Counted from the first letter of the stretch, positions 36,528 to 38,881 are shown. The stretch is DNA of 64,000 nt from an uncultured Candidatus Saccharibacteria bacterium (GCA_964654205.1 CAZZHR010000001.1:65953-129952); one strand, 5' to 3'. Translations and numbers: made by a program. The notes: generated by a model not told the origin, from the sequence alone.

Positions 36528-37250
36528 ATGAGCGGCATGCAGAAGGGTTTTTTCGGTGCGTTCCACGAGGAAACTAAACGACAATGGCCTCCGAAGAGTC
36601 CCATTCCGTTTGATAGTCAGCTGTGGCCAGATGAGTGGAAAATCATACGCTATAAAACATACGAAAGGATGGAGAAAATACCGCTGTCTCACGGTTTGGT
36701 GGAGGCGGATCTATTCGCACTCATAAAGAATCGGCGGTCAAAGCGGGGATTCACTCGCAGCCCGTTACGTAAGGAACAATTGTCAATACTCCTTTCGTAC
36801 GGATGCGGATTGCACGGCACGCATCGGGCGCAGCCGTCGGCGGGAAAGCGGTATCCGCTCGAGGTGTATCCGCTCGTCGTCATTTCCGATGATGTGGCAC
36901 CAGGTATGTATCATTACGATGTGCGTGAGCACCGCCTCGACGTGCTCTCACAAAAAAATGTGTCGAGTGAAGACCTCTCTCGCTTGTTCACGTATCCGTG
37001 GGCTGGCGATATTTCTCTGGCGATATTCGTCACAGCGGTCTTTGAACGCAATTTCGTGAAGTACGGCGACAGGGGGTACCGGCAAATCTTGCTCGAAGCG
37101 GGTCATGTGGGACAGAATCTGTACCTGGTTGCCGAGTCTCTGCAACTACAATGCACCGCAATGGACGGTTTCATAGACCGGGAAGTCGAAAAGTTTCTGG
37201 ATATTGATGGGGTCACTGAGTCCGTGGTCTATTCGATGGTGTTCGGCTGA
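36528..37250 (+). CDS. SagB/McbC-type (nitroreductase-fold) FMN dehydrogenase
   Basis: 'LIKNRRSKRGF', 'PSAGKRYPLEVY' and 'GYRQILLEAGHVGQNLYL' nitroreductase-family motifs. Divergent from YcaO. The start is ambiguous (36528, 36537 or 36669). Confidence 0.7.
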   Translation: MSGMQKGFFGAFHEETKRQWPPKSPIPFDSQLWPDEWKIIRYKTYERMEKIPLSHGLVEADLFALIKNRRSKRGFTRSPLRKEQLSILLSYGCGLHGTHRAQPSAGKRYPLEVYPLVVISDDVAPGMYHYDVREHRLDVLSQKNVSSEDLSRLFTYPWAGDISLAIFVTAVFERNFVKYGDRGYRQILLEAGHVGQNLYLVAESLQLQCTAMDGFIDREVEKFLDIDGVTESVVYSMVFG

Positions 37251-38881
37251 CGACGTCTCAAGCAATACAGATCGTTCGCATGAGTCGGGACGTACAATAG
37301 TCCTGACGCGGGGTCGTGCGCTATCTTATTCACAATCCGCTCCGTGGCGGGGAAAATACCTAGCTCCTTGCCAGTGTCTTTGTCGAGCTCATACATGATG
37401 CCGTCGTTGCTGCCAACGAACACAGATTGGCCTGCGACATGGGGACTGGAGAAAACGCGCCCTCTCGTGCGAAACTTCCATGCGATTTTTCCAGTATCAA
37501 CATGGAAGCTGTAGACGTTCTTGTCAGTTGACCCTACGAAGAGTCGATCGTGATCGAGCGCCGGTGTCGAAAAAATCGGCCCCAATGTCTCAAGGGTACG
37601 GACTAATGTGCCGGTACGAACGTCGACAACGTGGACGTATCCGTCAAAGCATCCGAAAAAGACCAAGCTGCGCGAATCGTCAAATACACATGACGCCTTG
37701 ACTTCACTGCCAACGGAATATTTCCAGATGAGCTTCCCCGTCGATGTGTCAAGACAGTACACGTCTCCACTGTTGCTGCCGCATATTACAACACCCAGAG
37801 AGTCCGAGACAGCTGGTGAGGCATGAACGAGCGAGGGGATTCGGTACGACCAGCGCAACTTCCCCGTTCGTGCATCAAGTGCAGCGATACCGCCTCGCTT
37901 ACTCCATAAGCCGAATTCGAGACCGATGAAGACGGTTTGCTGTCGTGGGCTAACGCAAGGAGACGAACCGACCCAGTCCGCATCCCGGTACACCCACCGC
38001 GCCCGTCCATCCTGAACATTGAGTGCGTATACGTTGCCATCGTAGGCCCCAAAAAAGAGCATATCGTTTTCTATTGCTGGGGAAGAAAAGATTCGTTTCG
38101 CGCCCTCACCCAATAAAGTCTTGAACTCCCACAACGTTTCCCCGCTCGCCTTGCAGAAGGCGCGCATACGACCTCTGTCGTCCCCCATATATACACGCTC
38201 GCCATCGACTGCCGGCCCCGATTTTGGAAGTACATGAAAAAAATTCGCATCTTTGCCGGTCGAACGCCAGACCACTTCGAATACAAGCCGGTCGTGAAGT
38301 GCTCGAGGCGGGGTATCTTCGAGTCGTGCGGTTGGGAAATCAGACAACTCGAACAGTGAGAGTATTCGCACCCCCCGTTGTTCGAGCTCAGCATAGTACG
38401 CTCGTGCGCGAAAACGCAGTATCACGAATACCGCCTTCACGTGCAGACCCTCTTTCTCGAGGATGTTGATTTGCTTGAGAATGCTTTGGCCTGAATTCAA
38501 AATGTCGTCCACGAGGACGACAGGCTGCGAGTTCAGATCACCCTCGATATTGTTTTGTAGCCCGTCCTTATCCCGTGATTTGCGAATGTAGAATCCGTTT
38601 ATGTCGTGACCTGATTCTCGTCCTTTCAGTACGAGGGCGGTAATGAGGGGGAGGGACGCGGTCTCCATTCCGCCTACCTGAAACGGTGCAAGGGATTTGA
38701 TTTCCGACCAGGCGAGTGCGGTTATTGTCTCGAGCATCTCGCCGCGCAGCATAATCTTTCTGAAATCAAATATCCACTTCATGGGCATGCCGGAGGGCGA
38801 GACGATCGGCCGGTCGGCGTGCGTAGCGAACACTCGTGTATCTATCGCAGATCTCAACATCTCCTTGCGCGACGGTGCTTC
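37229..38881 (-). CDS. Fusion protein: N-terminal type-I phosphoribosyltransferase domain plus C-terminal PQQ-like beta-propeller repeats
   Basis: PRTase 'PVVLVDDILNSGQS' PRPP-binding motif. Six or more repeats of the 'G.VY..D..TG...W.' PQQ/BamB-type pattern. Start taken at MEAPSRKEM (the ORF extends to 38959). Confidence 0.65.
   Translation of the reverse strand, partial: EAPSRKEMLRSAIDTRVFATHADRPIVSPSGMPMKWIFDFRKIMLRGEMLETITALAWSEIKSLAPFQVGGMETASLPLITALVLKGRESGHDINGFYIRKSRDKDGLQNNIEGDLNSQPVVLVDDILNSGQSILKQINILEKEGLHVKAVFVILRFRARAYYAELEQRGVRILSLFELSDFPTARLEDTPPRALHDRLVFEVVWRSTGKDANFFHVLPKSGPAVDGERVYMGDDRGRMRAFCKASGETLWEFKTLLGEGAKRIFSSPAIENDMLFFGAYDGNVYALNVQDGRARWVYRDADWVGSSPCVSPRQQTVFIGLEFGLWSKRGGIAALDARTGKLRWSYRIPSLVHASPAVSDSLGVVICGSNSGDVYCLDTSTGKLIWKYSVGSEVKASCVFDDSRSLVFFGCFDGYVHVVDVRTGTLVRTLETLGPIFSTPALDHDRLFVGSTDKNVYSFHVDTGKIAWKFRTRGRVFSSPHVAGQSVFVGSNDGIMYELDKDTGKELGIFPATERIVNKIAHDPASGLLYVPTHANDLYCLRRRQPNTIE

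Follow-up and report, generated by a model that had tools for sequence, protein, structure and literature searches.

A 64,000-nt stretch of DNA from an uncultured Candidatus Saccharibacteria bacterium (GCA_964654205.1 CAZZHR010000001.1:65953-129952), referred to here as the window, carries a gene for a protein in which a type I phosphoribosyltransferase (PRT) domain is fused to a β-propeller of the pyrroloquinoline quinone (PQQ)/BamB-like type. The gene is confirmed as real and as encoding a single protein, with a transferase domain of the kind that binds phosphoribosyl pyrophosphate (PRPP) and a propeller of eight blades. Its linkage to YcaO and SagB-like proteins and to a membrane-anchored peptide whose tail is rich in Gly, Asp, Ser and Cys persists across deep clades and through changes of gene order. 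Members of the family are already to be found in public databases under generic names, and what is new is the conserved architecture together with its peptide-maturation context. From these patterns of sequence and gene order we tentatively propose, at somewhat less than an even chance, that the protein is a maturation factor for exported repeat-tail peptides, in which the propeller would dock the precursor and the PRT domain would transfer ribose-5-phosphate.

Architecture of the fusion protein

The gene and the parts of its product, which resembles orotate phosphoribosyltransferase (OPRTase, or OPRT) in its N-terminal domain, lie in the window as follows.

37229..38884, minus strand: PRT–propeller fusion gene, 551 amino acids (aa) plus stop codon, with the ATG at 38884..38882
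38330..38827, minus strand: type I PRT domain, OPRTase-like, aa ~20-185 (TIGR00336, OPRT structures, AlphaFold2)
38483..38521, minus strand: PRPP-binding loop VVLVDDILNSGQS, aa 122-134, with D126, D127, N130 and G132 invariant in 34 sequences
38561..38584, minus strand: flexible catalytic-loop motif RKSRDKDG, aa 101-108, aligning with RKEAKDHG (R99-G106) of Escherichia coli PyrE
37250..38281, minus strand: eight-bladed PQQ/BamB-like β-propeller, aa ~202-545 (PF13570, PF13360, AlphaFold2, Foldseek)

A scan for open reading frames (ORFs) finds an unbroken minus-strand frame at 37229..38959 that encloses the coding sequence, and the 551-residue product is 100% identical to a database protein, P0001, called on an NCBI contig of 187 kb (family proteins are numbered from P0001 onward and homologous loci L001-L092). 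The initial annotation of this DNA likewise began the gene's span at 37229 and placed the end at 38881, which is 3 nt short and leaves out the ATG. The motifs on which it rested, namely the PRPP loop and five blade motifs, are all located within the ORF. Thirty-four homologues align with the protein from end to end, through the short linker and without a break at the domain junction, at a mean column identity of 62% and with invariant residues in the PRT domain and the propeller alike. The annotation's claim that the two domains share one chain is thus upheld by the unbroken ORF, the domain matches and the 34 full-length homologues. The same annotation had considered that the ORF might be two genes separated by an undetected frameshift. 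An artefact of this sort, with separate genes fused by a sequencing frameshift or a misassembly, can be dismissed with near certainty because of the end-to-end homologues from many independent samples: more than 120 independent full-length relatives have the same architecture, the ORF is uninterrupted, the alignment is continuous across the junction, and searches with the PRT domain alone return mostly proteins of 500-600 aa (102 of 149, see below).

The annotation had also called the fusion unusual, and in the sense of rare this does not hold, as the protein belongs to a large conserved family of the Patescibacteria/candidate phyla radiation (CPR). A search of 5.8 billion proteins gave 1725 matches, the best 120 of which are all 517-858 aa long and align over 93-100% of the query at 42-49% identity; the family comprises hundreds of clusters at 50% identity, mostly from Patescibacteria. 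When the PRT domain alone was searched against 1.84 billion cluster representatives, 522 matches were obtained at E<1e-10, and of the best-scoring 149 of these, which were examined, 102 are proteins of 500-600 aa with an N-terminal PRT domain, so that this PRT subfamily appears to be essentially always joined to a propeller. The few named homologues are called 'PQQ-binding-like beta-propeller repeat protein' and come from Candidatus Paceibacterota, Kaiserbacteria or Pacebacteria, and some carry the JGI name 'BamB/orotate phosphoribosyltransferase'. As first stated, no characterised protein of this architecture is known to us, nor was a solved one found: sequence and fold searches of the PDB match each domain only separately, and literature searches returned no paper on the PRT–propeller architecture.

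The OPRTase-like nature of the N-terminal part, and the PRPP loop within it, were both correctly recognised at the outset. The TIGR00336 (pyrE) model matches over aa 31-182 with an E-value of 4.6e-20 and 72.1 bits, under its cut-off of 106.8, and the other pyrE profile models likewise score well under theirs. PF00156 matches aa 104-155 only (E 3.2e-5; 23.7 bits against a gathering score of 26.3), and many homologues have a precomputed match to it. Failure of PRT models had been named as grounds for abandoning the assignment; both models do match, albeit under cut-off, and OPRTase structures align over the whole domain. A phmmer search of the PDB found 13 distinct chain sequences, nearly all labelled OPRT, in alignments that span aa 17-183, the best being human 2wns (1.5e-9) and Mycobacterium tuberculosis 5hkf (3.7e-8) over ~155 residues, and in the AlphaFold2 model strands and helices alternate through the domain. 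The loop of type I PRTs consists of four hydrophobic residues, two acidic residues and a stretch of small residues, which reads here as VVLVDD-ILNSGQS. Among 269 family members, the most divergent ones and those carrying additional domains included, 256 have a motif of the DDxxN[ST]G type and 250 a loop of the RK[SE]R type. The PRPP loop and the OPRT-type catalytic loop are under strong constraint, and because the motifs are so widely kept, selection acts on ligand binding and probably on catalysis with PRPP as well.

Comparison with E. coli PyrE (PDB 1oro), aligned to an N-terminal-domain profile of the family, places R101-K102 at R99-K100, D126-D127 at D124-D125 and G132 at G130, with an Arg at or beside the position of R156 and an EG motif after the catalytic loop in both proteins. 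The two therefore have in common similarity over the full domain, the acidic pair, the RKSR.KDG loop, the EG motif and the Arg at R156. The orotate and PRPP contacts of E. coli/Salmonella OPRT, which are, from established structural work, Lys26, Tyr72-Lys73, Lys103 and Arg156, are in contrast not retained as a set, Lys26 being replaced by Pro29 and Lys103 by Asp105. Pro29 stands at the conserved Lys of the OPRT motif 'LKSG' in an alignment with human OPRT, this Lys being Lys26 in E. coli numbering, and for the Tyr72-Lys73 pair no obvious counterpart is seen by inspection of a region that lies outside the profile alignment. The fusion protein further differs from PyrE in falling below the equivalog cut-off, in having invariant residues of its own (W37, Q69, E74 and N130 in the 34-sequence alignment), in being always accompanied, as a family, by a 350-residue propeller, and in a context of peptide maturation rather than of the pyrimidine pathway. 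The acceptor of the PRT domain may be something other than orotate. Type I PRT folds outside classical base salvage are also found in PurR and PyrR and in the PRTase-CE domain of conflict systems; PF24390 (PRTase-CE) gives a weak match below its cut-off (E 0.0011), but the fusion protein has no DNA- or RNA-binding domain.

The propeller passes the Pfam cut-offs of Beta-prop_ACSF4 (PF13570; E 1.5e-62, 212.4 bits against 133) and PQQ_2 (PF13360; E 1.6e-43, 149.4 bits against 27.6). In an AlphaFold2 model of the fusion protein, based on the 34 homologues, the mean predicted local distance difference test score (pLDDT) is 88 and that of the propeller mostly above 90, with low confidence (pLDDT <50) in the linker at aa 190-194; ~31 strands over aa 202-544 make up eight blades, where the initial annotation had counted six or more. 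Foldseek ranks eight-bladed BamB and the designed Cake8 highest (E ~1e-28), with TM-scores of 0.94 relative to Cake8 and up to 0.85 relative to BamB. The label 'PQQ-type' is hence apt for the fold but not for the family. Profiles of PQQ dehydrogenases are missed by far (TIGR03075, 69.7 bits against 480; TIGR03074, 28.7 against 833), with only the propeller repeats matching, and so are the BamB equivalog profiles (133 bits against 285 and 108 against 423). Like the BamB/YxaL-type propellers of PF13360 and PF13570, the protein has the eight-bladed fold, but it differs from BamB in being cytoplasmic and joined to an enzyme domain: there is no signal peptide or lipobox, the N-terminus being the PRT domain, and no bamA-like gene lies among its neighbours in the window. 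Motifs outside the repeat pattern that are invariant in the 34-homologue alignment (EADWIGSSP, GLEFGLWxKxGG, ERIxN and PTxANE) suggest a specific binding surface.

Longer members of the family carry extra domains. Pfam identifies an Asp/Asn beta-hydroxylase domain in P0198 and P0237, an Stf0 sulfotransferase in P0225, a HlyC acyltransferase domain in P0161 and P0251, and a radical S-adenosylmethionine (SAM) domain in P0259; a formyltransferase is present in P0114. Three further proteins, P0243, P0265 and P0266 (1235-1260 aa; L091 6722..10504), have a C-terminal extension of ~700 aa with no Pfam match. The surroundings of P0198 and P0243 gave no informative context.

Linkage to peptide, YcaO and SagB-like genes

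Ninety-two homologous loci were collected, and neighbour statistics were drawn from the 88 with CPR-type homologues (L001-L088), many of them only 2-7 kb long; dereplication at 85% identity left 62 loci, and all ORFs were clustered. Of the 62, 25 have a true YcaO gene close to the fusion gene and 32 have ORFs with the design of a candidate precursor peptide of 88 aa found in the window; among the 37 loci whose upstream flank reaches 3 kb or more, such ORFs are found in 25. These co-occurrence counts are lower bounds, since many loci are short, and they come from related loci that are not fully independent. Where at least 5 kb is present on both sides, a peptide or a YcaO gene is found in 18 of 21 loci. 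Searches with the window's neighbours by tblastn over the 88 loci gave YcaO in 37, the SagB-like protein in 34, a tetratricopeptide repeat (TPR) protein in 47, a 333-aa protein in 22, a 391-aa protein in 16 and a polytopic membrane protein in 11. When the fusion proteins are grouped by average linkage at 50% identity, 14 clades result, 10 of which have YcaO nearby. The arrangement itself varies: YcaO, SagB and PRT–propeller genes follow one another in the same direction in L008, L026, L050, L060, L079 and L088 and are convergent in the window, L005, L009 and L012, and two copies of the fusion gene with at least two YcaO genes are present in L008 and L087. A YcaO gene is at most rare in a genome of ~1 Mb, and since one is found in 40% of these ~20-kb neighbourhoods, through rearrangements, we consider the co-occurrence to be far beyond chance, judging from the counts and not from a computed test.

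In the window these genes form a cluster of ~13.8 kb between the genes for ribosomal proteins S10 and L3, the fusion gene included. Locus counts refer to the 62 dereplicated loci.

28465..28914, plus strand: rpsJ (ribosomal protein S10), left boundary, identified from the S10 sequence and forming the same boundary in L005
29389..31179, plus strand: Gly-rich protein, 596 aa, with long poly-Gly runs (PF21722, 1.7e-15)
32198..33415, plus strand: Cys-rich membrane-anchored protein, 405 aa, no family match; in 7 of 62 loci
33421..34962, minus strand: polytopic membrane protein with a predicted GGCX/HTTM-like fold (AlphaFold2 and Foldseek); in 11 of 62 loci
34964..36604, minus strand: YcaO-domain protein, probably of the SagD/TOMM (thiazole/oxazole-modified microcin) type, with an N-terminal extension of ~170 aa (PF02624, 1.3e-44)
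36483..37250, plus strand: SagB-family peptide dehydrogenase of the nitroreductase fold (PF00881, 3.3e-21; TIGR03605)
38994..39260, plus strand: 88-aa candidate precursor peptide, 109 bp from the fusion gene and divergent to it
39257..40432, plus strand: membrane-anchored all-alpha protein, 391 aa, no family match; family in 31 of 62 loci
40448..41230, plus strand: membrane-anchored TPR protein, 260 aa (TPR_19, 1.6e-19); in 31 of 62 loci
41217..42218, plus strand: membrane-anchored protein, 333 aa, C-terminal part Cys-rich; relative of the 596-aa protein; in 20 of 62 loci
42222..42698, plus strand: protein of 158 aa with hydrophobic N- and C-terminal segments, stopping 1 nt before rplC; in 7 of 62 loci
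42699..43436, plus strand: rplC (ribosomal protein L3), right boundary

The YcaO protein passes PF02624 with 153 bits and matches TIGR03604 at 3e-52 (177.8 bits against a cut-off of 219.25), and the SagB-like protein passes TIGR03605 with 131.6 bits against 78.4. The SagB-like gene is indeed convergent with the fusion gene, as first described, and overlaps its 3' end by 22 nt. This adjacency, which had been noted as a feature of this DNA, is one part of a conserved linkage that extends to YcaO, the candidate precursor peptide and other modification genes. The two genes had further been assigned to an insertion. The same cluster occurs between rpsJ and rplC in relatives at 42-49% identity, with L3/L4 found beside it by tblastn in L005, L007, L011, L047 and L042, and because this placement recurs the supposed insertion must be old and conserved rather than recent.

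The 88-aa ORF has the sequence MADRAVRTVKFFRILIAVVFSAIGIFVLAVLGDRKNDNLGSGFVDKAFADAPYAQGSYFDEGGGAVAGDGGCGCDGSDGSGGDGSDGG, with a basic N-terminus, one transmembrane (TM) helix, an AFADAP motif and a tail rich in Gly, Asp, Ser and Cys (…GDGGCGCDGSDGSGGDGSDGG). Its relatives are nearly always upstream of the fusion gene and divergent from it, just upstream of a homologue of the 391-aa protein, and two to three paralogues may be present in one locus (three in L008, two each in L087 and L088, and in L005 at 7568..7930 and 15369..15656). The motif A-[HYSNF]-A-[DE]-[VA]-P is found in 35 of 37 peptides, 15-30 residues past the hydrophobic helix, and by its A-x-A pattern might be likened to a signal-peptidase site. 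It is followed by a hypervariable tail of 20-98 residues, mostly Gly, Asp/Glu, Ser and Cys. The tail of the window peptide has 2 Cys and 4 Ser, and its relatives have 0-22 Cys; many tails are dominated by Gly and Asp/Glu with 0-2 Cys, and Cys-rich tails (5-22 Cys) occur only where a YcaO gene is nearby (one-sided Mann-Whitney p = 0.007, with limited flanks). A conserved leader, a variable core and multiple copies are hallmarks of the precursors of ribosomally synthesised and post-translationally modified peptides (RiPPs), and the family looks like one of RiPP precursors or of exported acidic peptides. The start of the 391-aa gene overlaps the stop codon of the peptide gene, and the genes for the peptide and the 391-, TPR, 333- and 158-aa proteins all run on the plus strand straight into rplC, so these genes may be co-expressed with the ribosomal proteins.

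The membrane protein at 33421..34962, with an ORF of 513 aa (415 aa as called by NCBI) directly next to the YcaO stop codon, has no match in Pfam or NCBIfam, and every source-named protein among its 605 CPR homologues is called 'hypothetical'. Its AlphaFold2 model (pLDDT 83.6; predicted TM-score, pTM, 0.84) gave as the top 14 Foldseek matches only vitamin K-dependent gamma-glutamyl carboxylase (GGCX), at E 6e-7 to 9e-5 and TM-scores of ~0.5 over ~380-400 columns, the next unrelated match having E 0.3. To our knowledge these bacteria are not known to make quinones. In L011, L016, L022 and L087 the gene forms an operon with the fusion gene, and a putative GGCX/HTTM-like enzyme beside acidic Gly-rich peptides would fit a multi-enzyme maturation system.

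Other families recur near the fusion gene. A protein of 615-670 aa, in which an AMMECR1 domain (PF01871) is combined with a long, alpha-helical C-terminal part, is encoded in eight of the 62 loci, in seven of them directly adjacent and divergent to the PRT–propeller gene; the window has no copy. Because L087 encodes an AMMECR1–YcaO fusion, this family is tied to YcaO; the fusion had also led single-linkage clustering to mix the two families, which were split before counting. We considered whether the ~700-aa extension of P0243 and its relatives is this neighbour protein, and ruled it out since neither BLASTP nor a custom hidden Markov model found any similarity. The examples are placed as follows.

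L010 228..2120, L014 7348..9255, L024 8169..10016, L032 7998..10007 and L036 8058..10004: AMMECR1-domain genes
L087 15615..18839: AMMECR1–YcaO fusion, 1074 aa
L005 13698..14204; L089 8484..8930 and 8948..9667: examples of TM-anchored rhodanese and DsbA/thioredoxin_4-like genes

TM-anchored rhodaneses are found in 14 dereplicated loci and TM-anchored DsbA/thioredoxin-like proteins in seven, neither of them in the window, and they hint at sulfur transfer and disulfide chemistry on exported Cys-containing tails. Lnt-like and methyltransferase-like proteins and a 468-aa family with no Pfam match are further recurrent neighbours.

The module also occurs outside this cluster. In L092 (ERZ25074617 contig_1, 1.5 Mb) a PRT–propeller gene of 539 aa (6396..8015) directly follows the gene for a 101-aa HxsA4 His-Xaa-Ser repeat precursor (6059..6364; NF038313, 69 bits against a cut-off of 55), the product of which ends in the tail …GSHGSHASHGSHGSHGSHGSHGSHGSHSSDDA. 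The region 1..17586 further encodes HxsB (456 bits against 370), HxsD (57 against 50), HxsC-like proteins, at least eight radical-SAM proteins and the radical-SAM–PRT fusion P0259 at 9001..11916. Beside the HlyC fusion are genes for an ABC exporter with a C39 peptidase, a HlyD-like protein, an Asp/Asn hydroxylase, a 2-oxoglutarate oxygenase and an acetyltransferase; beside the Stf0–PRT–propeller gene, those for an Asp/Asn hydroxylase, an Imm11 protein and a protein of 6080 aa; and beside the formyltransferase–PRT–propeller gene, those for YcaO, a nitroreductase, a rhodanese and a thioredoxin-like protein. The contexts of P0161 and P0225 (JGI 3300047160) look like toxin or secretion loci of non-CPR bacteria. 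The module is thus found alongside two or more unrelated maturation chemistries and alongside secretion- or toxin-type loci; common to these settings is an exported protein or peptide whose tail is of low complexity.

Two known systems invite comparison. With TOMM or linear azol(in)e-containing peptide (LAP) clusters, the window shares a YcaO-domain protein, probably of SagD type, beside a SagB-family dehydrogenase, and the Cys/Ser/Gly-rich C-terminal tail encoded by the small neighbouring gene recalls microcin B17-type cores. It differs in that no E1-like or RiPP recognition element (RRE) partner is found, in that the candidate precursor has a TM helix and the motif A-x-A-D-[AV]-P, and in that the cluster adds the PRT–propeller, GGCX-like, TPR and envelope proteins and runs into rplC. 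No E1-like, ThiF-like or RRE family was found either among the window's neighbours or among the recurrent neighbour families. The His-Xaa-Ser (HXS) system, with the radical-SAM enzymes HxsB and HxsC and with HxsD, is an antiphage system in which HxsA, bearing a signal peptide, is matured by cytoplasmic enzymes, exported and active in the periplasm (PMC13128918). The published four-gene system has no PRT or propeller component (PMC13128918). It shares with the cluster the logic of a signal-bearing protein with a low-complexity tail, matured in the cytoplasm and then exported, but in the window neither radical-SAM, HxsB, HxsC or HxsD genes nor His-Xaa-Ser repeats are present.

Possible function and alternative explanations

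As a maturation factor, the protein would be a cytoplasmic two-domain protein acting on the peptide before its export. The eight-bladed propeller would dock the precursor via the leader motif or the repetitive tail, and the PRT domain would use PRPP to place ribose-5-phosphate (+212 Da) on a nucleophile of the peptide. The usual targets of type I PRTases are ring nitrogens in aromatic heterocycles, which makes azoles and histidine rings attractive acceptors; the candidates would be a ring nitrogen of an azole made by YcaO and SagB, a ring nitrogen of histidine in an Hxs tail, or the Asp/Glu of the motif. The same substrate would be worked on by YcaO and SagB, yielding azoles from Cys/Ser, and by the GGCX-like membrane protein. 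In CPR bacteria the product could be a constitutively expressed envelope peptide, since the peptide operon runs into ribosomal-protein genes, and it might serve as an HXS-like surface barrier or as a metal- or calcium-binding component of the envelope. Taken on its own, the general part of this proposal, that the protein is a maturation factor, seems to us likely, whereas the specific chemistry of PRPP transfer is doubtful. The wider idea that the family is a peptide/protein phosphoribosyltransferase serving unrelated systems (YcaO/SagB, radical-SAM Hxs, and HlyC/type I secretion) is about as doubtful.

A number of observations weigh against the proposal. No precedent for PRPP-dependent peptide modification was found in the literature, and we know of none. 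The window protein has Asp105 at the position of the catalytic Lys103 of PyrE, with R104 (invariant) and K106 on either side, while the family consensus at this position is Lys. The tails of the 37 peptides have no universal nucleophile beyond the motif Asp/Glu, and the orientation of the two domains to one another is uncertain in the AlphaFold2 model (pTM 0.67). Five loci with long flanks, L021, L025, L033, L035 and L058, have neither peptide nor YcaO, so the PRT–propeller protein can work without them or its partners are encoded elsewhere in the genome, and the short and partly dependent loci limit what the counts can carry. Finally, Sharrar et al. in 2020 described, in the passages of their paper concerned with YcaO, 110 YcaO 'LAP' clusters (93 further CPR genomes), with an adjacent nitroreductase in 89 (PMC7298704), and those passages make no mention of a PRT–propeller protein.

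The alternative that survives best is that the module is non-catalytic, a recognition or scaffold protein that binds the precursor and presents it to a nearby or fused tailoring enzyme, with the PRT domain as an allosteric sensor of PRPP or a nucleotide in the manner of PurR and PyrR. It would then take the place of the RRE or E1-like partner, which these YcaO proteins seem to be without, and the want of any E1-like, ThiF-like or RRE family among the recurrent neighbours agrees with this. Fusion to at least five unrelated tailoring domains is a pattern typical of substrate-recognition modules, propellers are commonly interaction platforms and the fold matches BamB, and the Asp at the Lys103 position points the same way. 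The near-universal PRPP and RK[SE]R loops are, however, more than a simple ligand sensor usually retains, and the ~170-aa N-terminal extension of YcaO could itself provide recognition; we regard a purely non-catalytic role as unlikely.

Less probable again is that the protein is a small-molecule nucleotide enzyme, a PRT for orotate or another base, with a propeller that localises or regulates it and a neighbourhood that reflects nothing but lineage synteny. The closest matches of the PRT domain are true OPRTases that align along its full length, CPR bacteria are generally held to rely on nucleotide salvage, the cluster is located in a housekeeping ribosomal-protein region, and several long loci have neither peptide nor YcaO. 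The domain nevertheless scores below the pyrE cut-off (72 against 106.8 bits), has Pro at the Lys of 'LKSG' and its own invariant W37, Q69, E74 and N130, and no pyrimidine-pathway family is among the recurrent neighbours. Mere synteny also sits poorly with a linkage that survives rearrangements, duplications and 10 of 14 deep clades, and that appears again in the unrelated Hxs radical-SAM cluster and in non-CPR fusions with protein-modifying enzymes.

The protein might lastly supply a ribosylated building block or cofactor, such as a phosphoribosylated heterocycle that another enzyme later uses on the peptide. The conserved PRPP-binding machinery, the co-occurrence with many different tailoring enzymes and the loci that hold methyltransferase-like and other enzymes in place of the peptide are all compatible with such a supplier, but no ligase or transferase that could attach the unit is consistently present, and the propeller and the fusions to protein-modifying domains are left unexplained, which makes this a very improbable explanation.

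If the proposed maturation role with its PRPP chemistry is true, PRPP-dependent phosphoribosylation would be a new reaction in ribosomal-peptide chemistry, and a role would be assigned to a family present in hundreds of CPR/Patescibacteria lineages, whose small genomes are largely unannotated. Whatever the chemistry, a conserved CPR cluster is defined between rpsJ and rplC, with peptide, YcaO, SagB, PRT–propeller, GGCX-like, TPR and envelope proteins, and CPR 'LAP' clusters, hitherto interpreted as antibiotic genes, are linked to a possible housekeeping or envelope function. The presence of the module beside HxsA4 suggests an accessory factor that current RiPP genome-mining rules ignore. To a specialist in RiPPs or in CPR bacteria, the conserved PRT–propeller partner, the anchored acidic Gly-rich peptides and the GGCX-like neighbour would come as a surprise.

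Further observations on the cluster

A recent insertion or mobile element was ruled out as the origin of the cluster: no tRNA genes or Rfam elements were found in the window, and the S10–L3 placement is repeated in distant relatives. The GC content over 28-43 kb shows no sharp departure from the remaining window. A known defence system was likewise rejected, as the PADLOC defence models matched neither the fusion protein nor six of its neighbours. A scan for promoters and terminators over 36.3-39.4 kb found no excess of sites relative to shuffled sequence.

The longest ORFs of the YcaO and SagB-like genes overlap head to head by 122 nt; their true starts are probably further in, in which case both would be controlled from one short divergent region. 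Paralogues with a Cys-rich C-terminal region are encoded at 29389..31179, 41217..42218 and ~22606..24393, all on the plus strand, and their family is found in 20 of the 62 loci. The 405-aa Cys-rich protein of the window has relatives that adjoin the fusion gene in L048, L057 and L081.

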